64,000 bases of DNA from a virus, in IMG/VR virus record IMGVR_UViG_3300036985_009306, positions 128,144 through 192,143 of that record. The stretch is one strand, 5' to 3'. The first letter of the stretch is position 1. Each line of letters opens with the position of its first letter. Under the pieces are notes generated by a model. The model was not told the DNA's origin. It made no database searches and was given only the letters and a program-made list of their open reading frames with translations. The position numbers and the translations under genes are program-made. Positions 20,026 through 56,038 of the stretch are shown in pieces.

Positions 20026-20481
20026 ATGATACACCTTTATCTTTTGTCAGGAAAAAAAGTCCAGCAACATTTAACTGTCGATGGTTGGTTAGAATCTCAA
20101 TCCCATCCAAATTTGTCAGAACCACAACTAACTGGAACTCATTTACAATACTCATTTTGTTCTCTATGTCATGGTACAGGTGTTGATCCGGTACAAGAAG
20201 GCGAATTGACAAGAATATGTAGACGATGTCAAGGAGCAACATATGAAACAGTGAGTGTGGCTCCACATATTGGCGGCTATAGAGACGTTGCTACCACATT
20301 GGATATAATAGGAAAACCCTGGATTGAATGTTTCAAAATTACACCAGAATATAAAAATCTACCTGCTGAAATTCAACATCAAGCATTAGATGGATTGAAA
20401 CAATGGTGTTACGAAGAAGAACAAAGAATAAATGCAGAAGATCCTGTAAAAACAAATAATAAAATAAAGTTCATATGTTAA
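20026..20481 (+). CDS. hypothetical protein with DnaJ-type zinc-finger repeats
   Basis: CSLCHGTG and CRRCQGA motifs; AGGAG RBS. Confidence 0.65.
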   Translation: MIHLYLLSGKKVQQHLTVDGWLESQSHPNLSEPQLTGTHLQYSFCSLCHGTGVDPVQEGELTRICRRCQGATYETVSVAPHIGGYRDVATTLDIIGKPWIECFKITPEYKNLPAEIQHQALDGLKQWCYEEEQRINAEDPVKTNNKIKFIC

Positions 20482-20987
20482 AAAAATTCTTTTGCAATTA
20501 AAAGAATATGTAGACGATGTCAAGGAGCAACAGTGAGAGTACCTATTATGTCAACTTTAACAAATAGAAATGGTAGACAATATGATTTAAATGATTTAGA
20601 ACTGTCAACTTTAACAAATAGAAATGGTAGCCAATATGATTTAAATGATTTACAACCTGGTAGAGTTGAATTCTTAACAAATGGTACACCTTTACAAGTT
20701 ACTGGTCCTGGTATCTTACAAGTTCCAACTTCCGAGAATGAAATTACAACCGAATTAAGAGAAAATATGGATGAAATTCATAAAGACATAGAATTTGTGC
20801 ATGAAAACAACAAAATGAAGTTTATACTGACTGGGCAAACTGGAACTCATTTACAATACGGTGTTGATCCGCCGGGTCCCTCACTTGCTTTTTGCTCAAT
20901 GTCCCTGATAAGAAGCAGGTACAATTCGGCCTGTGTGGTACAAGAAGGCGGATTGACAAGAATATGTAGACGATGTCAAGGAGCAAC
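20211..20987 (+). repeat. three dispersed copies of a 30-bp sequence (20211-20240, 20502-20531, 20958-20987)
   Basis: AAGAATATGTAGACGATGTCAAGGAGCAAC, identical x3. Confidence 0.9.
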
Positions 20988-21006
20988 TTTAACTAAGAAA
21001 TGGTAG
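20533..21006 (+). CDS. mosaic hypothetical ORF built from duplicated fragments
   Basis: Contains a 54-bp tandem duplication and segments copied from 20026-20481 (GTHLQY, GVDP, VQEG.LTRICRRCQGAT). Confidence 0.4.
   Translation: MRVPIMSTLTNRNGRQYDLNDLELSTLTNRNGSQYDLNDLQPGRVEFLTNGTPLQVTGPGILQVPTSENEITTELRENMDEIHKDIEFVHENNKMKFILTGQTGTHLQYGVDPPGPSLAFCSMSLIRSRYNSACVVQEGGLTRICRRCQGATLTKKW
20549..20652 (+). repeat. 54-bp in-frame tandem duplication
   Basis: TGTCAACTTTAACAAATAGAAATGGTAG.CAATATGATTTAAATGATTTA x2; a third partial copy lies near 20984-21032. Confidence 0.9.
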
Positions 21007-21184
21007 ACAATATGATTAAATGATTTACAACCTGATGGTAAGTTTAGTTCTAGTATTAGATTTTGGCTGCACAATTCAAATTGACAAACCACTATCTATA
21101 GATTACTCCTCAATATAGAAAACAATTACCAAAAACTCAATATTGAATGCTGAAATTCCTCTTAAAAAATAAATAAAAAAATAA

Positions 21185-21213
21185 TGTACATTTTAAAAAA
21201 TAAATGATATATT
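21185..21213 (+). promoter_or_regulatory. promoter of tRNA array 1 leader
   Basis: TGTACA-N17-TATATT; identical hexamers and spacing at 31414-31442. Confidence 0.65.
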
Positions 21214-21238
21214 AATGATATACAATAGGAAAAGGACT

Positions 21239-21376
21239 ATGAGACTTCACCTAACTTCATCAAAAAAGATATTATGGCAGCAACTGCCTGATATGGGTGT
21301 CAATAATAACTCCCATAAAACACTGTCATGTTTGTCGAGTCTCTATTTTAAAGTGAGACAAGAAGGTGAAGCTTAA
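21239..21376 (+). CDS. putative attenuator leader peptide of tRNA array 1 (45 aa)
   Basis: MRLHLTSSKKILWQQLPDMGVNNNSHKTLSCLSSLYFKVRQEGEA; AGGAAAAGGA RBS; contains a codon readable by each of the 15 downstream tRNAs. Confidence 0.7.
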   Translation: MRLHLTSSKKILWQQLPDMGVNNNSHKTLSCLSSLYFKVRQEGEA

Positions 21377-21414
21377 AGTTTAAAAAGAAAATATTTTTAA
21401 AAAGGCTCACCTTC
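21362..21414 (+). promoter_or_regulatory. putative antiterminator helix of tRNA array 1
   Basis: GAAGGTGA-A-GCTT (21362-21374) pairs with AGGCTCACCTTC (21403-21414), the 5' arm of the terminator. Confidence 0.65.
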
Positions 21415-21438
21415 AAAAAAAAGAAGATGAGCCTTTTT
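21399..21438 (+). terminator. intrinsic terminator (attenuator) upstream of tRNA array 1
   Basis: AAAAAGGCTCA-C-CTTC-A8-GAAG-A-TGAGCCTTTTT. Confidence 0.8.
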
Positions 21439-21456
21439 GATTTTAGAGATATACTC

Positions 21457-21530
21457 GCCTCAATAACTCAAATGCTTAGAGTACTTGTTTCTTAAACAAG
21501 GAGTTGAAGGTTGAAATCCTTCTTGAGGCA
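21457..21530 (+). tRNA. tRNA-Lys(CTT)
   Basis: Acceptor GCCTCAA/TTGAGGC; anticodon arm CTTGT-TTCTTAA-ACAAG. Confidence 0.85.
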
Positions 21531-21547
21531 AAATAAAGGAGAAACAA

Positions 21548-21620
21548 GCCGCTTTAGCTCAGTTGGTAGAGCAATGGACTGAAAATCCATGTGTCACCCG
21601 TTCAATTCGGGTAGGCGGCA
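21548..21620 (+). tRNA. tRNA-Phe(GAA)
   Basis: Acceptor GCCGCTT/AGGCGGC; ATGGA-CTGAAAA-TCCAT. Confidence 0.92.
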
Positions 21621-21884
21621 TTTTGACTAGAGAAAAATATGTTTGAATGTGAAACAATTTTGAAACAATTGACAAAAAATCCAGATACAGAAATAATTCA
21701 TAATCATCAACAATGTAATTCATATATAGAAAAGATGTTGACTGAACGAGAATTAAAACGTAGATGATCTCGAAGGTGACGAGTTAACTATAAATTTTCG
21801 TACATATAAACCATAGGATGAAATTTTGAATAACAAGAAAGGGACCCGAAATGAACGACAAAGATGGCAAATCTGACAAACTAA

Positions 21885-21973
21885 GGGTCCGTCACTTAGA
21901 GGCCGATAGTACCAAATTTTTAATTTGGAGAGTGACAAAAACTCCATCGCAGGTTCGAATCCTGCCGGGCCCA
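21885..21973 (+). tRNA. tRNA with TTT (Lys) anticodon and long variable arm
   Basis: GGGTCCG/CGGGCCC; CCAAA-TTTTTAA-TTTGG; 20-nt variable region with GAGT/ACTC stem; GCAGG-TTCGAAT-CCTGC. Confidence 0.8.
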
Positions 21974-21993
21974 TTTTAAAAGAGAAAATAATT

Positions 21994-22287
21994 ATGTTTA
22001 AAAAATACACTAAAGAAAATTTATCAACAATGGACAATGGTTTCTATATAATGAAATCAGATCCTAATTCTGAAACAGTGGCCAAAAATCCTAATGATGA
22101 AATTGTTGAACTAATAAATGGTCAAATAATCAATGACATCAAACTTGACATAAGCAATGTAAATTATGAATTAATACAATTAAAAGGAGACTTTAAAAAA
22201 CTTCCACATAATGGTGGAGGACCAATCAAGTTTGAATTAAATGGAAAAATAGTTGATATTGACAATATAAAAAGTTCTTTGAAATAA
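21994..22287 (+). CDS. hypothetical protein within tRNA array
   Basis: ATG 21994; the upstream extension in the ORF track overlaps a tRNA. Confidence 0.6.
   Translation: MFKKYTKENLSTMDNGFYIMKSDPNSETVAKNPNDEIVELINGQIINDIKLDISNVNYELIQLKGDFKKLPHNGGGPIKFELNGKIVDIDNIKSSLK
22273..22284 (+). promoter_or_regulatory. boxA-like antitermination motif
   Basis: AGTTCTTTGAAA; similar copies at 22450-22461 and 23631-23643. Confidence 0.4.
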
Positions 22288-22289
22288 AT

Positions 22290-22362
22290 AGACCCATAGC
22301 TCGTTGGTTCAGAGGCCTTCTTTACAAGTAGAATGTCGGGAGTTCGACTCTCTCTGGGTCTA
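22290..22362 (+). tRNA. tRNA-Val(TAC), imperfect anticodon stem
   Basis: AGACCCA/TGGGTCT; loop TTTACAA; two stem mismatches; T-arm GGGAG-TTCGACT-CTCTC. Confidence 0.7.
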
Positions 22363-22369
22363 AATTTAT

Positions 22370-22442
22370 ACGGACATAGCTCAATGGCTAGAGCAATGGT
22401 CTCCAAAACCATAGGCTGTGGGTTCAAGTCCTACTGTCCGCG
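22370..22442 (+). tRNA. tRNA-Trp(CCA)
   Basis: ATGGT-CTCCAAA-ACCAT; G73. Confidence 0.9.
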
Positions 22443-22449
22443 AAAATTA

Positions 22450-22461
22450 TGTTCTTTGACA
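22450..22461 (+). promoter_or_regulatory. boxA-like antitermination motif
   Basis: TGTTCTTTGACA between tRNA genes. Confidence 0.45.
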
Positions 22462-22491
22462 TACTTGGTTATTTAGCAAGTTTCTTAATTC

Positions 22492-22583
22492 GGAGATTTG
22501 TCCGAGTCTGGCTTAAGGAGCCGCACTGCTAATGCGGTGAAGTTGTTATACAACTTCCAGTGGTTCAAATCCACTAATCTCCG
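22492..22583 (+). tRNA. tRNA-Ser(GCT)
   Basis: GGAGATT/AATCTCC; CCGCA-CTGCTAA-TGCGG; long V-arm; G73. Confidence 0.92.
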
Positions 22584-22599
22584 CTTTTTAAAGAGTTAT

Positions 22600-22685
22600 G
22601 CCCAAATGGTGGAACGCTAGACACGCTGCGCTTAGAACGCAGTATCCGAAAGGGTGTGGGAGTTGAAATCTCTCTTTGGGCACCA
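22600..22685 (+). tRNA. tRNA-Leu(TAG)
   Basis: GCCCAAA/TTTGGGC; CTGCG-CTTAGAA-CGCAG; encoded CCA. Confidence 0.92.
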
Positions 22686-22701
22686 AAAATTAGGAATAAA
22701 C

Positions 22702-23454
22702 ATGACAAAAGAACAAATGTATCAAGACCTTTTGTCTGTTGATACATCAAAACTTGGTTGGATTTCTAAACTTTCAAAAAAATGGCATATGTCACATACA
22801 TGTGCAACTAAGAAAGTGTGTAAATATTTTCCAGAAATTATTGAAAATAGTTATAAAAGAAAGTCAAAAAAGAAATATTGTCCCAAATGTAATTCTTATT
22901 TTCATAAATCATTTTTTAATAAACATAAATGCAAAAACTATTTAGAAAAATATAGGAGAAGCAGAAGAAAACTTCATACAAGAAGATCATTAATCGTTGA
23001 TAAAGACATTCTTGAAAAATCTGTGAGTAAAGCTGAATCATTTAATCAAGTAATAATAGATTTAAAACAACAAAATATTTCTATATCATTTAAAAGACTT
23101 TTCAAACTGATAAAATTTTATGAACTTTCTACTAAACATTTTCTTGGAAAAAGTTCGTTAAAAGCAAGAAAAAAACTTGAAAAAGAAGAATTTATTTTAG
23201 AATGTTTAACAAACAATTCAAAACATGCAGCTTATAATATAAAATCTAAGATTTTGCATTTTGAAATTTTAGAATATATTTGTAATAGCTGTGGACAAAA
23301 TTCTGAATGGAATAATAAAAAACTTGTATTACATTTACATCATAAAAATGGTAATGACAATGACAATAGATTAGATAATCTAGAATTTCTTTGTCCTAAT
23401 TGTCATTCACAAACAGAAACATATTGTAGGTCGAAATCAAAAAAATTGAAATAA
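22702..23454 (+). CDS. HNH homing endonuclease
   Basis: CNSC...LHLHHKNGNDNDNRLDNLEFLCPNCHSQT; ATG 22702 after AGGA. Confidence 0.88.
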   Translation: MTKEQMYQDLLSVDTSKLGWISKLSKKWHMSHTCATKKVCKYFPEIIENSYKRKSKKKYCPKCNSYFHKSFFNKHKCKNYLEKYRRSRRKLHTRRSLIVDKDILEKSVSKAESFNQVIIDLKQQNISISFKRLFKLIKFYELSTKHFLGKSSLKARKKLEKEEFILECLTNNSKHAAYNIKSKILHFEILEYICNSCGQNSEWNNKKLVLHLHHKNGNDNDNRLDNLEFLCPNCHSQTETYCRSKSKKLK

Positions 23455-23467
23455 ATACTAAATTATT

Positions 23468-23541
23468 GGCCGAGTGATGGAAACGGAATACATGCGATAT
23501 TCAAAATATCGATTTTAAGAGTTCAAATCTCTTCTCGGCTA
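23468..23541 (+). tRNA. tRNA-Leu(CAA) lacking the long variable arm
   Basis: GGCCGAG/CTCGGCT; Leu-type D arm; CGATA-TTCAAAA-TATCG; variable region only about 5 nt. Confidence 0.75.
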
Positions 23542-23545
23542 TTAA

Positions 23546-23630
23546 GCCCAAGTGGTGCAATTGGTACCCACAACGGTCTTAAGAACCGTCGAAAGAAATT
23601 TCATTGCCAGTTCAAATCTGGCCTTGGGCA
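23546..23630 (+). tRNA. tRNA-Leu(TAA)
   Basis: GCCCAAG/CTTGGGC; ACGGT-CTTAAGA-ACCGT; V-arm present. Confidence 0.92.
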
Positions 23631-23643
23631 AGTTCTTTGAAAA
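23631..23643 (+). promoter_or_regulatory. boxA-like antitermination motif
   Basis: AGTTCTTTGAAAA directly before the permuted tRNA-like gene. Confidence 0.5.
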
Positions 23644-23644
23644 T

Positions 23645-23790
23645 TAAGTTGTATCCTTTAACACTTAATGCTTACATTAAATTTTGTGGTTCGACTCCAC
23701 ATTCCCCCAATTATGGGGGAATAGCCAAATGGTAAAGGCAATAGACTATAGATCTATCAAAAACAGCATTATCAACTTGGATACAACTTA
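23645..23790 (+). ncRNA. circularly permuted tRNA-Tyr-like RNA (ATA anticodon) with paired termini
   Basis: T-arm and acceptor 3' strand (23685-23709) precede acceptor 5' strand, D arm and anticodon arm (23715-23757); 12-bp and 7-bp terminal inverted repeats. Confidence 0.8.
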
Positions 23791-23796
23791 TTTTAC

Positions 23797-23869
23797 ACTA
23801 ATGTAGCTCAATTGGTAGAGTAATGGGATCATACCCCAGAGGTTAAGAGTTCGAATCTCTTCATTAGTA
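23797..23869 (+). tRNA. tRNA-Met(CAT), initiator-like (could be Ile2)
   Basis: ACTAATG/CATTAGT; three G-C pairs next to the ATCATAC loop. Confidence 0.85.
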
Positions 23870-23918
23870 TTTTAAATTACAAGATTTAGATATATAAACA
23901 ATCTGAGGAGGATTGTTT

Positions 23919-24086
23919 ATGGATAATCTTGAATTAAGAAGGAATGGTAAATTTACATGTTTAGATTGTCAGAATAACAAATCTGAGTTGTGTAAGACAT
24001 GTAAGAATTGGGACCAATTCGATTTAAATGAAGAAGTCTCAAAATTGCTGTATGAAGAAAAGAGTTTAAAGAGAGATAAAAAATAA
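23919..24086 (+). CDS. small Cys-containing hypothetical protein
   Basis: GAGGAGG RBS; CLDC...CKTC; 55 aa. Confidence 0.5.
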   Translation: MDNLELRRNGKFTCLDCQNNKSELCKTCKNWDQFDLNEEVSKLLYEEKSLKRDKK

Positions 24087-24087
24087 C

Positions 24088-24174
24088 GGTGGGATGGCAG
24101 AGTCTGGTTTATCGCACCTCGCTTGAGACGAGGATCTCCGAAAGGGGACGCAAGTTCGAATCTTGCTCTCACCG
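24088..24174 (+). tRNA. tRNA-Ser(TGA)
   Basis: GGTGGGA/TCTCACC; CCTCG-CTTGAGA-CGAGG; V-arm. Confidence 0.92.
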
Positions 24175-24255
24175 CTTAAAATTATGTTAAAAAAATATTT
24201 TTGTTCTATTTGTAATTGGGATTTAACAAATTCTGGTATGAGATATTCAAATTAA

Positions 24256-24350
24256 GGAAGAGTGTCCGAGTTGATCTAAGGAGCTAGTCTCGAAAACTAG
24301 TGAAGGATGAAATAAAGCCTCCGCAGGTTTAAATCCTGTCTCTTCCGCCA
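24256..24350 (+). tRNA. tRNA-Ser(CGA)
   Basis: GGAAGAG/CTCTTCC; CTAGT-CTCGAAA-ACTAG; encoded CCA. Confidence 0.9.
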
Positions 24351-24357
24351 TTATGAT

Positions 24358-24429
24358 GATCCTGTAGCCAAATGGTAAGGTGCTGGTCTGCAAAACCAGA
24401 ATAGGTCGGTCCGATTCCGCCCAGGATCT
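24358..24429 (+). tRNA. tRNA-Cys(GCA)
   Basis: GATCCTG/CAGGATC; CTGGT-CTGCAAA-ACCAG; U73. Confidence 0.9.
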
Positions 24430-24450
24430 TAAAATTAAAAGGGATTAACT

Positions 24451-24681
24451 ATGGAAGACAAAGATTATGTTTTGACAATCAGGGTACCTTTCAAAGCAGC
24501 TGACGATATAGATGCTAGAGAGTATGCTAAGTCTATATTTTCTATAGATTCTCCTAATGGAGTGAACTTAAAATTGCAGGAGATTTTTGTAAATAAAGCA
24601 CCAAGAGGAGTGAATTTTTTGTCCGATTATGAGATTGCAGGATTGTTAAATACAGACAAAGGAAAGAAAACAAGCATGTGA
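24451..24681 (+). CDS. hypothetical protein
   Basis: AAGGGA RBS. Confidence 0.6.
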   Translation: MEDKDYVLTIRVPFKAADDIDAREYAKSIFSIDSPNGVNLKLQEIFVNKAPRGVNFLSDYEIAGLLNTDKGKKTSM

Positions 24682-24784
24682 TAATATTGTTGTTAAAAAC
24701 AACGTGTCTGCTTGGATGAAGAAGTTTTGGATATTGAATGTGTATATGAGAGAGGATTAGACACTTTCTAATGGGAGGCATACT

Positions 24785-25057
24785 ATGTTAGACAAAAGAC
24801 AAGAAGCCGTTTCTATTGCAGAAGAAGTGTTGAACGTTATTCCTAAGGAAGTTACATATAAAGTGCCTGGTCTGACTATGGAGGATATTAAAATTACATA
24901 TAAAGTGCCTGGTCTGACTATGGAGGATATTAAAATTACATATAAAGTGCCTGGTCTGACTATGGAGGATATTAAAATTACATATAAAGTGCCTGGTCTG
25001 ACTATGGAGGATTTAAGTGTTGTTAAAGTTTATGGTGACTGTAGTTTAGATGGCTAA
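24785..25057 (+). CDS. hypothetical protein with 14-aa tandem repeat (3' end overlaps tRNA-His)
   Basis: GGGAGG RBS; TYKVPGLTMEDIKI repeated about 3.8 times. Confidence 0.5.
   Translation: MLDKRQEAVSIAEEVLNVIPKEVTYKVPGLTMEDIKITYKVPGLTMEDIKITYKVPGLTMEDIKITYKVPGLTMEDLSVVKVYGDCSLDG
24852..25012 (+). repeat. 42-bp perfect tandem repeat, 3.8 copies
   Basis: TTACATATAAAGTGCCTGGTCTGACTATGGAGGATATTAAAA; no spacers. Confidence 0.95.
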
Positions 25058-25108
25058 AACATTGCGTTGTGACCGCAAAAATCGGCAGTTCAAGTCTGCT
25101 CAGTCACC
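25034..25108 (+). tRNA. tRNA-His(GTG)
   Basis: G-1, GTGACTG/CAGTCAC, C73; TTGCG-TTGTGAC-CGCAA. Confidence 0.9.
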
Positions 25109-25162
25109 CTCTCATTATGAAAAAATATTATACAGTCTACAAAACTAAGCCGCTAATTTTCT

Positions 25163-25252
25163 GGGTCAGAGGCAACTATCGGGTGTGTTGCGCAAGACTG
25201 TAGATCTTGTCCCGTAGGGTAAACATTGGAGGTTCAACTCCTTCCTGGCCCA
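25163..25252 (+). tRNA. tRNA-Tyr(GTA)
   Basis: GGGTCAG/CTGGCCC; CAAGA-CTGTAGA-TCTTG; V-arm; atypical D arm. Confidence 0.85.
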
Positions 25253-25269
25253 TTTTGGAGAAATTTAAA

Positions 25270-25863
25270 ATGTCATCTGTAATAGTTTTGACCAAAACAT
25301 ATGCATATTGGGGAGAGAGATCTCTTGAAGATGCAATTAGATTGTACTTTCGTGGAAAAGCTGAGATTTTAAAAGCTGATGAAAGTAGATTGATAAAAGC
25401 AGGAATTAATAAAAATGGAATTATATTGAAAATGCCTGCACCTTTAATACTTAGATTGCTTGAATTTACAGGTATTTATCACACAAAAACAAAAATTAAA
25501 TATTCAAAAGAAGCAGTTTGGAAGAGAGATGATAATTATTGTCAATTTTGGCATAGAGATGAAAAAGGAAAAAAGTTTAAATATAAATGCTCACAAGATG
25601 ATAGAACTATAGACCATTTGATTCCTAAAAGTAGAGGTGGAAAACGTAATGACTTTTTAAATTGTGTGACTGCTTGTAGACATTGTAATGAAAAGATTAA
25701 AGGTAACAAAACTCCTTTAGAAGCAGGTCTTATATTAACTAAACTTCCAGAAATACCAAAGTTTAGACGGGGGGATATGATTATACTGACTTTTTCATTT
25801 AATCCTTCAAATAAAGCTCATCAAGCTCTTAGAGAGTTAATCCCTCAATTAATTAAGCTGTGA
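25270..25863 (+). CDS. HNH endonuclease (McrA-like)
   Basis: TIDHLIPKSRGG...NCVTACRHCNEKIKG; ATG 25270 after GGAG. Confidence 0.88.
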   Translation: MSSVIVLTKTYAYWGERSLEDAIRLYFRGKAEILKADESRLIKAGINKNGIILKMPAPLILRLLEFTGIYHTKTKIKYSKEAVWKRDDNYCQFWHRDEKGKKFKYKCSQDDRTIDHLIPKSRGGKRNDFLNCVTACRHCNEKIKGNKTPLEAGLILTKLPEIPKFRRGDMIILTFSFNPSNKAHQALRELIPQLIKL

Positions 25864-27799: not shown

Positions 27800-27814
27800 A
27801 GGAAAGAGAATAAT

Positions 27815-27991
27815 ATGACAGATGAACAAAGAGCTTCTTACATTATATCGCAATCAGTTTGTGCCTTGGCCGAAATAGAATACCCTTTTCGTACTGAATC
27901 TGATTTTCAAGGAGTTGACAAACCAGTTGCGCGTTATTGTAGTTCTGCCGCGAGAAAGGTTAAGGTTCAAAATGAAGTTGACAGAATGTAA
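27815..27991 (+). pseudogene. deleted, chimeric copy of the gene at 55838-56038
   Basis: Near-identical 5' sequence with an in-frame 45-bp deletion, then fused to unrelated GC-richer DNA. Confidence 0.7.
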
Positions 27992-29122: not shown

Positions 29123-30130
29123 ATGCTTAGAAAACTAGCTTCAATTCGAAAAGTAAGAGACATCAAACCAATAAAAGATGCTGATGCAATTGAACTTGCA
29201 ATTGTTGATGGATGGCAAGTAGTTGTAAAAAAGGGACAATTTAAACTTGATGAACTTGTAGTCTATGTAGAAATAGACTCATTTTTGCCAGAACGCTCAG
29301 AATTCGAGTTTTTAAGAAAAAGCTCACATCGAACAATGGCGGACGGTTCAACAGGATTTAGACTTAAAACTGTTCGTTTGAGAGGACAACTTAGTCAAGG
29401 TTTGATTCTTCCTCTCAATGAAGTCAATCTTTCTAATGTCAATCTGGGTGATGAAGTTACAGAGCAACTGGGAATTAAAAAGTATGAACCACCTATTCCA
29501 GCTTGTCTTGCAGGAGAGATGAGAGGAGCTGTTCCAGGAGAAATTCATAAAAGTGATCAAGAAAGAATTCACAATTTATTAAACTATTGGACAATCTATA
29601 AAGATTTAGAATTTGAAGAAACAGAGAAGCTCAATGGTGCTAGTATGACTGTTTATCACAATCAGGGAGATACCGGAGTTTGTGGCCATAAATGGAATAT
29701 GAAGGAAACTAAGGACAACACCCTTTGGAAGGTCTCTAGAAGGCTCGAATTAACAGAGAGATTAACTAAATTAGGATTGAATCTAGCACTTCAAGGTGAG
29801 ATCATTGGAGAAGGTATTCAATCTAATTGGTACAAAATAATTGGACAAACTTTTAAAATCTATGATATCTGGGATATTGACAATCAGTACTATTTAACAA
29901 ACAAAGAACGATTAGATATCATTCAAAAACTTGGATTTGATCTTTCTATTCACGTACCTATTCTAAATGCTCATATGAAGATTTTTGATATAATTAAAGA
30001 TGTTAATGAATTTTTAGAATATTCAACAGGAATTTCAAAATTAGCCAATGTGCAACGAGAGGGTCTTGTTTATAAATCAACAGAAAGAGTTGGACCTCAA
30101 ACTATTTCTTTTAAAGTATTAAAAGAGTGA
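29123..30130 (+). CDS. RNA ligase (DRB0094/Rnl2-like family)
   Basis: N-terminal RKLASIRKV...GWQVVVKKGQF...EIDSFLP; motif I TEKLNGAS, QGEIIGEGIQ, REGLVYK, SFKV. Confidence 0.88.
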   Translation: MLRKLASIRKVRDIKPIKDADAIELAIVDGWQVVVKKGQFKLDELVVYVEIDSFLPERSEFEFLRKSSHRTMADGSTGFRLKTVRLRGQLSQGLILPLNEVNLSNVNLGDEVTEQLGIKKYEPPIPACLAGEMRGAVPGEIHKSDQERIHNLLNYWTIYKDLEFEETEKLNGASMTVYHNQGDTGVCGHKWNMKETKDNTLWKVSRRLELTERLTKLGLNLALQGEIIGEGIQSNWYKIIGQTFKIYDIWDIDNQYYLTNKERLDIIQKLGFDLSIHVPILNAHMKIFDIIKDVNEFLEYSTGISKLANVQREGLVYKSTERVGPQTISFKVLKE

Positions 30131-30134
30131 TTAT

Positions 30135-30392
30135 ATGACTAAAGAAGAATTTTGTAAAGCTCCCAAAAAGGTAACTATAGTTTTTAATCGAGTAACATCA
30201 AATGAAGAATTAAAAAGACTTTTAGATATGGCAAGTTTGAATGTCGAAAGTTCTATTATGGGTGCTGATTTTAGTACTGTGGAAAATGGTGTTCAAAAGA
30301 GTTGCGGAACGCCTTACATCTTACAACAGGTCGAGTATGCCATGCCGGGGAATCCACAGACGCGAGCTATCCTTGGCAACAAGGGTAGATGA
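30135..30392 (+). CDS. hypothetical protein
   Basis: ORF running into the GC-richer patch. Confidence 0.5.
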   Translation: MTKEEFCKAPKKVTIVFNRVTSNEELKRLLDMASLNVESSIMGADFSTVENGVQKSCGTPYILQQVEYAMPGNPQTRAILGNKGR

Positions 30393-30651
30393 AAAAGGTG
30401 CAGTCCGGTTACAAGTCGGACGTTCCCCGGCACAGCACACGTCGGCCGTTTTCTTTTCTGGTGGAAGGTGTGTGACATTTCCGCTGACATTAGGGAAATT
30501 CGCGCAACGGTCGTACAACAGGCAAAGGAATGCCATAACCTTGACACTATAGAAGTAAAAAATAAATAGCGGTTCGGCAAACGGATGCCGTAACCGCTGC
30601 AAGAAATTTATGTCACTCTGATATTCAGATGTTGGCGCAGGAGAAAACCAA

Positions 30652-30888
30652 ATGCCTAAATTCAGACTTAGAAATTCAGTAGATTGTGAAGAAGAACAGA
30701 TAGTCAATCTTATTAAAGGTACTAACGGGGAACGATTTATAGCAGGTTGGAAAGGTTGCGGTGCTGTAAAATTCAAAGCAAATGATACAGCACTAATTTT
30801 TGAAGTTATGTGTGAAAATAAACCCTATGGTGATGTCGGGGTTACTTGGGAAGAAGATGCGTCAACGGACACTAAAGAAGTGACCTAA
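30652..30888 (+). CDS. hypothetical protein (GC-richer patch)
   Basis: Bounded by GGCGCAGGAGAA (RBS) and ACATCTTACAA motifs. Confidence 0.6.
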   Translation: MPKFRLRNSVDCEEEQIVNLIKGTNGERFIAGWKGCGAVKFKANDTALIFEVMCENKPYGDVGVTWEEDASTDTKEVT

Positions 30889-31413: not shown

Positions 31414-31442
31414 TGTACATTTGCAATAAAATGTATTATATT
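31414..31442 (+). promoter_or_regulatory. promoter of tRNA array 2 leader
   Basis: TGTACA-N17-TATATT, matching 21185-21213. Confidence 0.65.
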
Positions 31443-31451
31443 AGATGCATT

Positions 31452-31517
31452 ATGATAACAAAGCTTTTTCAACAGCCGCAACCACAACCCAAACACCTGA
31501 GGAGTGAAGCCTGTTGA
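31452..31517 (+). CDS. putative Gln/Pro attenuator leader peptide (21 aa)
   Basis: MITKLFQQPQPQPKHLRSEAC; seven consecutive Gln/Pro codons upstream of tRNA-Pro and tRNA-Gln. Confidence 0.75.
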   Translation: MITKLFQQPQPQPKHLRSEAC

Positions 31518-31553
31518 AATAAGTTGATATAGATTTTTCAAAAGGCCTCACTC
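31467..31553 (+). promoter_or_regulatory. protector (1:2) and antiterminator (2:3) helices
   Basis: TTTCAACAG (31467-75) pairs with CTGTTGAAA (31511-19); 31502-31519 pairs with 31536-31553 at 16 of 18 positions. Confidence 0.75.
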
Positions 31554-31577
31554 GAAAGTTTGAGGCTTTTTTGTTTT
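31540..31577 (+). terminator. intrinsic terminator (attenuator) upstream of tRNA array 2
   Basis: AAAAGGCCTCA...TGAGGCTTTTTTGTTTT. Confidence 0.85.
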
Positions 31578-31580
31578 AAA

Positions 31581-31653
31581 CAGGGCGTATTTCAGCTAGT
31601 AGAATTCTTGATTTGGGATCAAGAGGTCGGGAGTGCAAACCTCCCCGCCCTGA
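31581..31653 (+). tRNA. tRNA-Pro(TGG)
   Basis: CAGGGCG/CGCCCTG; CTTGA-TTTGGGA-TCAAG; atypical T loop TGCAAAC. Confidence 0.85.
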
Positions 31654-31659
31654 AATTGA

Positions 31660-31708
31660 CAGGTAGTAGCTCAATTGGTAGAGCACCGCATGAGTCTCTC
31701 CTGCCTGA
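31660..31708 (+). pseudogene. internally deleted tRNA (Pro-like acceptor)
   Basis: CAGGTAG/CTGCCTG acceptor and intact D arm; anticodon and most of the T arm are missing. Confidence 0.7.
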
Positions 31709-31726
31709 ATTTTATAATACAGTTCT

Positions 31727-31802
31727 TGGGTGTGTCTTCCAGTAGGTTTAGGAAACTAGATTTTGAATCTAGCAACCAAGGTTCAAATCCTTGCACACTC
31801 GA
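31727..31802 (+). tRNA. tRNA-Gln(TTG)
   Basis: TGGGTGT/ACACTCG; CTAGA-TTTTGAA-TCTAG; CAAGG-TTCAAAT-CCTTG. Confidence 0.88.
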
Positions 31803-53824: not shown

Positions 53825-54088
53825 GTGGAAGAGCAAATGAGCAAGAACGCTAAACGACGCTGGAGAGAGATTTCGGAGAGAAAACAGCGGGAAATTTATG
53901 CTCAAACTGAAGAAATAAAAGATGCATCGGAGCAACTATACGAATTCGTGCAAGGCTATATTGAAAATCATAAGATTTCTTGTCCTGAATCGATTCACCA
54001 GTCCGATGAGATCAATCTCGATGCCCCGCATTTTATGGAAAAATGTTGTGAGATTGTAGGACTTTTCCATGAAAAGGAAAACTCATGA
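53825..54088 (+). CDS. hypothetical protein
   Basis: ORF. Confidence 0.55.
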   Translation: MEEQMSKNAKRRWREISERKQREIYAQTEEIKDASEQLYEFVQGYIENHKISCPESIHQSDEINLDAPHFMEKCCEIVGLFHEKENS

Positions 54089-55566: not shown

Positions 55567-55837
55567 ATTATGGGTGGATATATACACAAGAAAAGAGGAT
55601 TCTCAGTTTTCGTCTAAATTTATGTATGTTAGAAACTTAAAGGTATAGCAGAGAAATTGAGAGGATCAATTTGTTATTATGTTGGTGATTTAAAATGTAA
55701 GAAATGTAAAGGTGTGGGTTTTGTTCCTATATCATTGTTGCGTAAATTAAAAGCTTATTTTATAGAACGGGTACCTTGGAATCACATAAAGAAAAACGTT
55801 ATGTGTACATTTTGTGAAGGTCATTTGGAGGAATAAT

Positions 55838-56038
55838 ATGACAGATGAACAAAGAGCTTCTTACATTATATCGCAATCAGTTTGTGCTATGGCTGAAATA
55901 GAGGCTATGAAAGTTGAAAATGTTATTGCTGCTTTGCGTAATGAATACCCTTTACGTACTGAATCTGATTTTCAAGGAGTTGTTTCTAAATATCAATTAG
56001 ATCATAATTCCGTTATTAGTTATTTTATGAATTATTAA
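55838..56038 (+). CDS. hypothetical protein (source of the partial copy at 27815)
   Basis: GGAGG RBS; MTDEQRASYIISQSVCAMAEIEAM. Confidence 0.7.
   Translation: MTDEQRASYIISQSVCAMAEIEAMKVENVIAALRNEYPLRTESDFQGVVSKYQLDHNSVISYFMNY

Follow-up and report, generated by a model that had tools for sequence, protein, structure and literature searches.

A Putative Leader-Peptide Attenuator at the Head of a 15-tRNA Array in an Uncultured Phage

Introduction

How does a large phage decide when to transcribe its tRNA genes? The question is raised by a locus in the window analysed here, a 64,000-nt stretch that forms the final 64 kb (positions 128,144 to 192,143) of the 192,143-bp IMG/VR virus record IMGVR_UViG_3300036985_009306, which belongs to an uncultured phage from a sediment metagenome. 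The record has an estimated completeness of 97%, a G+C content of about 30% and nearly all of its genes on the + strand, and the 16 tRNAs that ARAGORN calls in the genome all lie in two clusters, at 21457–25253 and 31581–31802 (coordinates of this phage are those of the window throughout). Each cluster is headed by a promoter-like site, a short open reading frame (ORF) and a terminator, referred to below as module 1 (before the large array) and module 2 (before tRNA-Pro and tRNA-Gln). Leader-peptide attenuation is a textbook mechanism for amino-acid operons, and a search of the published literature found no account of leader-peptide attenuation controlling tRNA genes. With a probability of roughly 0.6, the segment 21185–21438 is a ribosome-dependent, leader-peptide transcription attenuator that heads the 15-tRNA array. 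The same segment is a paralogue of the module that precedes tRNA-Pro and tRNA-Gln, and the array tRNAs would probably be made only when ribosomes read the leader slowly.

Architecture of Module 1

Module 1 begins with a promoter-like site on the + strand at 21185–21213, composed of TGTACA (21185–90), a spacer of 17 nt and TATATT (21208–13), with a TG at 21205–06 that makes an extended −10 element and an A-rich tract upstream at 21166–21181. The pattern TGTACA-N16-18-TATANT has exactly two occurrences when both strands of the 192-kb genome are scanned, at 21185 and at 31414–42, each of them just upstream of one tRNA cluster, and the two copies share the sequence TGTACATTT-N14-TATATTA, preceded by an A-tract. 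The TGTACA promoter-like site is thus dedicated to the tRNA clusters. A Shine–Dalgarno sequence, TAGGA (21226–21230, + strand), lies 8 nt before the ATG of the leader, with its GG at −11/−10. The upstream regions of the phage genes carry AGGA in 38% of cases versus a background of 5%, and their G peak extends from −11 to −8, matching the GG of the leader.

The leader ORF occupies 21239–21376 on the + strand and comprises 45 codons, MRLHLTSSKKILWQQLPDMGVNNNSHKTLSCLSSLYFKVRQEGEA, followed by a TAA at 21374–76. Such a short ORF close behind a promoter, equipped with its own start codon and ribosome-binding site, is the layout of a leader attenuator, and the frame remains open over 45 codons in AT-rich DNA, for which the estimated chance of meeting no stop is about 0.04. 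Another ATG, at 21215, would extend the ORF to 53 codons and is located 2 nt after the −10 element and is probably not transcribed. A search of 1.84 billion representative proteins found no homologue of the peptide, as expected of a leader peptide, and it has no PHROG match. A reading of the peptide as a type I toxin was rejected, since it is not hydrophobic.

Downstream of the promoter, four strands of the RNA can form three competing helices. Strand 1, the protector (21234–21252, + strand), spans the end of the ribosome-binding region as well as the AUG and codons 2–5, and pairs in the minimum free energy structure with 21364–21381. Strand 2, the 5' strand of the antiterminator (21362–21381, + strand), includes the final four codons together with the TAA, and can pair either with strand 1 or with 21404–21414. 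Strands 3 and 4 constitute an intrinsic terminator (21399–21438, + strand) that reads A5-GGCTCAcCTTC, a loop of A8 and GAAGaTGAGCC-T5. The core of this hairpin spans 21404–38, with an A/U extension from 21399, and has a folding energy of −18.9 kcal/mol (z = −6.9); its stem includes one C/A mismatch, and the hairpin escaped a simple hairpin scan. The terminator ends 19 nt before the first tRNA, tRNA-Lys(CUU). The promoter, the ribosome-binding site, the 45-codon ORF, the terminator and the complementarity between CTTCACCT (21245–52) and GAAGGTGAAGCTT (21362–74), all of which had been described in an earlier reading made from the letters of this DNA alone (the sequence-only reading), are in place.

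The duplex energies, which like all folding results given here were computed in silico, are −20.2 kcal/mol for the 1:2 helix, −17.7 to −18.1 kcal/mol for 2:3 (11 bp with a one-base bulge) and −18.9 kcal/mol for 3:4, and the three pairings are mutually exclusive and of comparable stability. The RNA from 21220 to 21446 folds at −65.7 kcal/mol (z = −6.35), and the excess of structure is confined to the switch, with z = −4.2 for 21220–21382 and z = −6.9 for the terminator versus z = −1.5 for the middle part, 21253–21358. Moreover, the ORF is interlocked with the helices, as it starts within strand 1 and its stop codon lies within strand 2. Five strict hairpin-plus-T5 terminators exist on the + strand of the whole genome, four of them at gene ends; that of module 1 is the only one located elsewhere, between a promoter and tRNAs. 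A scan of the region from 18 to 34 kb showed no further terminator-like hairpin besides those of modules 1 and 2, and none inside the array, and by inspection the stretch 21439–21456, between the terminator and the first tRNA, offers no room for a promoter. Searches with Rfam found no family besides tRNA, and a T-box riboswitch (RF00230) was rejected, with no match in 21100–22450 at E values up to 5.

Such a strong fold (z = −6.35 for 21220–21446), with its stable terminator, might also be expected of a self-contained small RNA or small protein gene, in which case the array would be served by leaky read-through or by internal promoters, without any regulated switch. A sigma-70-like site inside the array, TTGACA-17-AATAAT (21669–21697, + strand, 11 of 12 positions), would suit this explanation. 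It is nevertheless highly improbable, as the above-chance structure is limited to the switch strands, the segment has no Rfam match and its peptide no homologue, the interval from the terminator to the first tRNA leaves no place for a promoter, and both the 2:3 helix and the compensatory differences between the two modules, described in the next section, would lack a role.

The Gln/Pro Module and Its Relationship to Module 1

The strongest support for the attenuator reading is provided by module 2. Its promoter (31414–31442, + strand) has the same architecture as that of module 1 and is followed, 10 nt after the −10 element, by the ATG of a leader ORF of 21 codons (31452–31517, + strand), MITKLFQQPQPQPKHLRSEAC. 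This ORF includes the run QQPQPQP (31470–90), which is the only run of at least five Gln/Pro codons in the genome (384,282 codon positions in six frames). The terminator with its strand 3 follows at 31536–31577 on the + strand, and its antiterminator partner, 31502–31519, holds the TGA stop codon; the energies are −14.6 kcal/mol for 3:4 and −20.1 to −20.7 kcal/mol for 2:3. Downstream of this terminator, also on the + strand, lie tRNA-Pro(UGG) at 31581–31653 and tRNA-Gln(UUG) at 31727–31802. The stretch between these two tRNAs (31654–31726) is a fragment resembling the 5' half of a tRNA (GGTAGTAGCTCAATTGGTAGAGCA...).

When a ribosome is represented as a 27-nt mask on the folded transcript, the probability of the terminator in module 2 is 0.00 with the A site at codons 3–13, which include all seven Gln/Pro codons, and amounts to 0.83–0.89 at codons 14–22 and to 0.78 at codon 2. 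The regulatory codons of module 2 match the regulated tRNAs and, in the model, a ribosome stalled on them masks strand 1; its predicted folding is textbook attenuator behaviour.

From the ORF ends to the U-tracts, the switch regions of the two modules align with 73% identity and have the cores GUGAAGC and GGC(C)UCAC in common, and they are paralogues. Two compensatory differences were read from the folds against the alignment, which is limited evidence, as it comprises two sequences. Firstly, the G:C pair that adjoins the GUGA/UCAC core of module 1 has an A:U counterpart in module 2. Secondly, strand 3 of module 2 has an extra C (GGCCUCA versus GGCUCA), for which there is a match both in strand 2, as an additional C, and in strand 4 (GAGGC in module 2 versus GAGCC in module 1). 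These differences are what the upkeep of both the 2:3 and the 3:4 pairing predicts.

The recurrence of an unusual palindromic hexamer, TGTACA, in both promoters, with a terminator 100–200 nt later, could also indicate a promoter-proximal terminator that is overcome by a factor, either a phage antiterminator like lambda Q or another RNA-binding regulator. TGTACA would then be the loading site and the ORF would be incidental, with which the non-genic codon usage of the module 1 leader would agree. This possibility is rather improbable, since it leaves unexplained why the sole Gln/Pro run of the genome, QQPQPQP, stands before tRNA-Pro and tRNA-Gln, why each of the two ORFs stops within its antiterminator strand, why module 1 has a Shine–Dalgarno site and why an unrelated megaphage has matched leaders (see below). 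Factor-mediated antitermination and a self-contained unit both account for the promoter and the terminator, but not for the wiring of ORFs into helices or for the QQPQPQP match.

Proposed Mechanism

In the attenuator that we propose, the dedicated promoter would start an RNA whose first 200 nt could fold in two ways. If no ribosome is present, strand 1, which carries the ribosome-binding site, the AUG and codons 2–5, would pair with strand 2, the terminator would form and the polymerase would stop 19 nt before the first tRNA. A ribosome reaching the stop codon would cover strand 2, and the terminator would form likewise. A ribosome held on strand 1, or just past it, would instead allow strand 2 to pair with the 5' arm of the terminator, and the polymerase would enter the array. 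The codons in the sensitive position would be codons 3–10, Leu-His-Leu-Thr-Ser-Ser-Lys-Lys. From this arrangement we infer that the ORF is translated, that termination depends on the ribosome and which codons are sensed.

Codon Coverage of the Leader

The sequence-only reading had gone further and taken the leader for an OR gate, in which a stall at any of the codon classes served by the 15 tRNAs would give read-through into the array. This variant of the attenuator, which we regard as doubtful, requires strand 1 to stay occupied by trailing or initiating ribosomes during a stall of the lead ribosome upstream of about codon 39. One point in its favour is coverage. Under strict wobble, each of the 15 array anticodons finds a codon in the leader that it can read, and all six Leu codons are used, as that reading had stated, although its 15 canonical tRNAs prove to be 14 solid ones and one weak, Val-like one. 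It was also right in describing the leader as inclusive rather than exclusive. A property that it had not mentioned is that all 20 amino acids occur in the peptide (P about 0.01; combined with the 15/15 coverage, 10^-5 to 10^-4).

How rare such coverage is depends on the null. For 44 random codons after the ATG, the probability of 15/15 is 5 × 10^-5 with the codon usage of phage genes under strict wobble and 6 × 10^-4 under lenient wobble, 9 × 10^-4 with the codon usage of small, mostly spurious ORFs, 1.9 × 10^-3 with the mononucleotide composition of the genome and 1.3 × 10^-3 with the base composition of the leader itself. None of the 42,469 44-codon windows within real genes (strict set) reaches 15/15, whereas one other case exists among the 304 ATG ORFs of 35–60 codons in six frames, at 53922–54059; this ORF, equal in length to the leader, is spurious and lies within a real gene in a different frame. 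Since the codon usage of the leader is itself non-genic, the non-genic nulls matter, and the coverage is unusual at the level of about 10^-3, not 10^-5. The chance expectation on which the sequence-only reading had made its coverage argument depend is therefore very low under genic codon usage, but reaches about 10^-3 to 2 × 10^-3 under non-genic nulls, and a spurious ORF attains the same score.

That reading had also singled out codons 25–39 (SHKTLSCLSSLYFKV), where 14 of the 15 residues belong to the amino-acid set of the array. The count holds and favours the OR gate, but its P value is 0.0025 under the genic null and only 0.03–0.07 under non-genic ones, and the run is uncoupled from the terminator in the single-ribosome model described below. 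Furthermore, 16–22 of the 45 leader codons are unserved by the array (22 under strict wobble), so that such a gate would respond to any slowdown of translation.

Which Codons Could Be Sensed

A ribosome mask was also applied to module 1. With a single ribosome on the full transcript at equilibrium, only A-site codons 5–8 (CTA ACT TCA TCA) lower the probability of the terminator, to 0.15–0.73, while codons 11–46 keep it at 0.90–0.96 and the run at codons 25–39 at 0.95, which argues against the OR gate. When the transcript is cut before strand 4, the antiterminator helix 2:3 has a probability of 0.99 at codons 2–10 and of about 0.8–0.98 at codons 11–38, and therefore forms at every A-site codon from 2 to 38, a point for the OR gate. 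It drops from at least 0.8 to 0.33–0.47 when the ribosome covers strand 2 (A-site codons 39–46), the behaviour of an attenuator with its stop codon in that strand. Queued ribosomes at a spacing of 30 nt are likewise favourable to the OR gate, as they lower the terminator probability to 0.11–0.18 for stalls at codons 15–16 and to 0.39 for a stall at codon 27; several further mid-ORF codons give smaller drops.

An independent check on whether such leaders exist elsewhere is offered by LR756501.1, a public megaphage of 735 kb whose 66 tRNAs are clustered by amino acid. The ORF MLQTSKHSKHFSSSSKWFTTFGVETDLLCVS, complement(207396..207491), precedes its Trp-His-His-Phe-Lys-Ser cluster and is followed by a strong terminator; it includes ...SKHSKHFSSSSKWF... 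and has 14 consecutive residues from exactly the amino-acid set of the cluster. Another ORF, complement(367468..367596), has a Shine–Dalgarno site, reads ...TPAPAVAFRRGTGTGTGTCVPAGCG... and is followed by a terminator and then by Arg/Thr/Val/Ala/Gly/Pro tRNAs. These leaders are nearly exclusive, with 14/14 and 22/25 residues in the matching sets, and they would sense five to six amino acids at once, a point in favour of the OR gate. In a cross-table of leaders and tRNA sets, every leader is strongly enriched for the set of tRNAs behind it, and four of the five leaders score highest on their own set among non-overlapping sets, module 2 being enriched mainly through its single run; this enrichment indicates that the class is real outside the genome studied here. 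At least three tRNA clusters of LR756501.1 (loci L017–L023) are preceded by a short ORF enriched in their amino acids and a terminator. The megaphage also has two tRNAs with the anticodon CUA (Pyl according to ARAGORN), at 690585–690737.

On these clearly matched megaphage leaders, the equilibrium mask model dips only to 0.54–0.88; since it barely responds there, its negative outcome for codons 25–39 of module 1 is not strong evidence. Geometry is a further point against the OR gate. Both in module 2 and in the leader of the Trp-His-His-Phe-Lys-Ser cluster, the matched codons sit on strand 1 or directly behind it rather than in a remote spacer, and in module 1 this position corresponds to codons 3–10 (LHLTSSKK), not to codons 25–39. 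Classical attenuator logic thus points to codons 3–10 as those that would be sensed. Seven of their eight residues are in the set of the array, and their amino acids cover 9 of the 15 array tRNAs (3 Leu, 3 Ser, 2 Lys and 1 His).

As for the sequence-only reading as a whole, its attenuator is upheld by the anatomy, the competing helices and the matched paralogue, while read-through upon a stall at any of 15 codons is doubtful, as coverage gives it partial support and geometry gives it none. A related and still speculative idea, which we consider unlikely, is that the leader monitors the tRNA pool or decoding speed through many inputs, covering the codon classes of the 15 array tRNAs together with the Gln/Pro codons of the second cluster. 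In that case, ribosomes queuing back to the start region would switch on the array when any decoder becomes limiting, for example under attack by a host anticodon nuclease.

Points That Weigh against Attenuation

Several observations count against an attenuator at the head of the array. The codon usage of the leader is non-genic, with a log-likelihood ratio below that of 98.7% of genic windows, and resembles random sequence. Array codons do not dominate the leader, since 23 of its 45 codons are array-served versus 37% expected, and the run at codons 3–10 is not significant alone (binomial estimate, P about 0.02–0.08). The translated spacer of 105 nt between strands 1 and 2 is atypical in comparison with classical attenuators, and module 2 has no Shine–Dalgarno site, so that its mRNA would be nearly leaderless. 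Moreover, the sigma-70-like site at 21669–97 could drive 13 of the 15 tRNAs without the leader, bypassing the switch; sites of this kind number 3 on the + strand and 12 on the − strand, and the one at 21669–97 may therefore be due to chance.

A megablast search of 20500–25300 against phages gave no match. Exact patterns taken from the terminator and from pieces of tRNA-Lys were not found in the scans of IMG/VR and of JGI metagenomes, and the leader peptide and the upstream gene had no match in IMG/VR. The relatives of the RNA ligase show at most 42% identity, with tRNAs absent nearby, and the neighbouring ORF at 21994–22287 has no homologue among 5.8 billion proteins. The sequencing runs listed for this DNA include none of RNA. 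Among the contigs of three DNA runs that were compared, the same phage is present in two sediment runs, and a relative of about 94% identity appears in a peat run, only as array pieces of 150–300 nt; coverage of the leader is slight, with no differences listed there. These searches yielded no usable relative of the phage, and the sole comparison for the conservation of ORF and helices is that between the two in-genome paralogues.

The tRNA Array and Its Surroundings

The array (21457–25253, + strand) runs in the order Lys-CUU, Phe-GAA, Lys-UUU, Val-UAC-like, Trp, Ser-GCU, Leu-UAG, Leu-CAA, Leu-UAA, Met, Ser-UGA, Ser-CGA, Cys, His and Tyr. ARAGORN finds 14 of these to be solid and makes no call for the weak Val(UAC)-like tRNA (22290–22362), which scores 39 bits with Rfam and has two mismatches in the anticodon stem. 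According to the Rfam alignment, the tRNA with the anticodon UUU (nominally Lys), at 21885–21973, has a class II body of 89 nt with A73 and a variable region of about 20 nt that forms its own stem. Small ORFs and HNH endonuclease genes are interspersed in the array, the latter at 22654–23454 and 25207–25863. Just before tRNA-His, the ORF 24785–25057 contains four to five tandem units of 42 nt (24807–25054) that encode the 14-residue repeat ITYKVPGLTMEDIK.

Upstream of the leader, 20026–21020 holds two tandem paralogous small genes with a common 3' block of 51 nt (at 20190, 20481 and 20937) and with internal repeats of 54 nt (at 20549 and 20603). A stretch of about 110 nt is duplicated 28 kb apart (27808–27917 and 55831–55982) with 96–98% identity, and each copy spans the start of a small ORF (MTDEQRASYIISQSVCA...). 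The RNA ligase gene (29123–30130) sits between the two tRNA clusters. Between this gene and module 2, the stretch 30241–30780 has a G+C content of 0.38 versus 0.30, its ORFs look implausible on both strands, and it has no Rfam match.

Significance and Comparison with Known Systems

If the attenuator reading is true, the phage would close the shortest possible loop, in which slow decoding of certain codons would trigger transcription of the very tRNAs that read them. This would explain how large phages time the expression of their tRNA arrays, link phage tRNAs to host tRNA depletion and to anticodon-nuclease defences, and show how compact and portable sensors of the availability of individual tRNAs can be built. 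The presence of one narrow (Gln/Pro) and one broad module in the same genome makes the idea directly testable.

Close parallels, which do not form a published family, are the leaders of LR756501.1. They show the same order of short ORF, terminator and tRNA cluster, with residues that mirror the tRNAs behind them. They have no sequence similarity to the modules of this phage and are nearly exclusive, whereas module 1 is inclusive, with 26 of 44 residues in the set and all 20 amino acids.

Multivalent attenuators are known from amino-acid operons of enterobacteria, such as ilvGMEDA, whose leader contains Leu, Val and Ile codons, and thr, whose leader contains Thr and Ile codons. As in these leaders, a short ORF follows the promoter (translated in the enterobacterial cases and predicted to be so here), exclusive 1:2, 2:3 and 3:4 helices precede a U-tailed terminator, the stop codon is located within strand 2 or close to it, and one leader would sense several amino acids. 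In contrast with them, the genes that would be regulated here are tRNA genes and not biosynthetic enzymes, and the element resides in a phage. Module 1 differs further in having 45 codons, a spacer of 105 nt between strands 1 and 2 and its AUG within strand 1, and in lacking a dense run of one or two regulatory codons.

Attenuators for a single amino acid include trpL, hisL, pheL and leuL, as well as the Pro-codon leader mgtP of the Salmonella mgtCBR operon. Module 2 closely resembles them in having its regulatory codons on or just after strand 1 and in losing its terminator in silico when these codons are masked. It differs in having no Shine–Dalgarno site and in its output, which would be the tRNA itself, so that decoding speed would act straight on tRNA supply.

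The T-box (RF00230) is likewise a transcription attenuator with the tRNA pool as its input. However, it recognises the uncharged tRNA itself, by means of a specifier codon and the T-box bulge, does not need translation, and controls synthetase and amino-acid genes.

Finally, lambda pR'-tR' combines a special promoter with a strong terminator, which lies within about 200 nt downstream, controls access to a long unit behind it and is overcome by Q antitermination. Both TGTACA modules have this layout of promoter and then terminator. Q, however, needs no leader translation, whereas the ORFs of the phage described here are built into the helices and the leader of module 2 matches the tRNAs that follow it.

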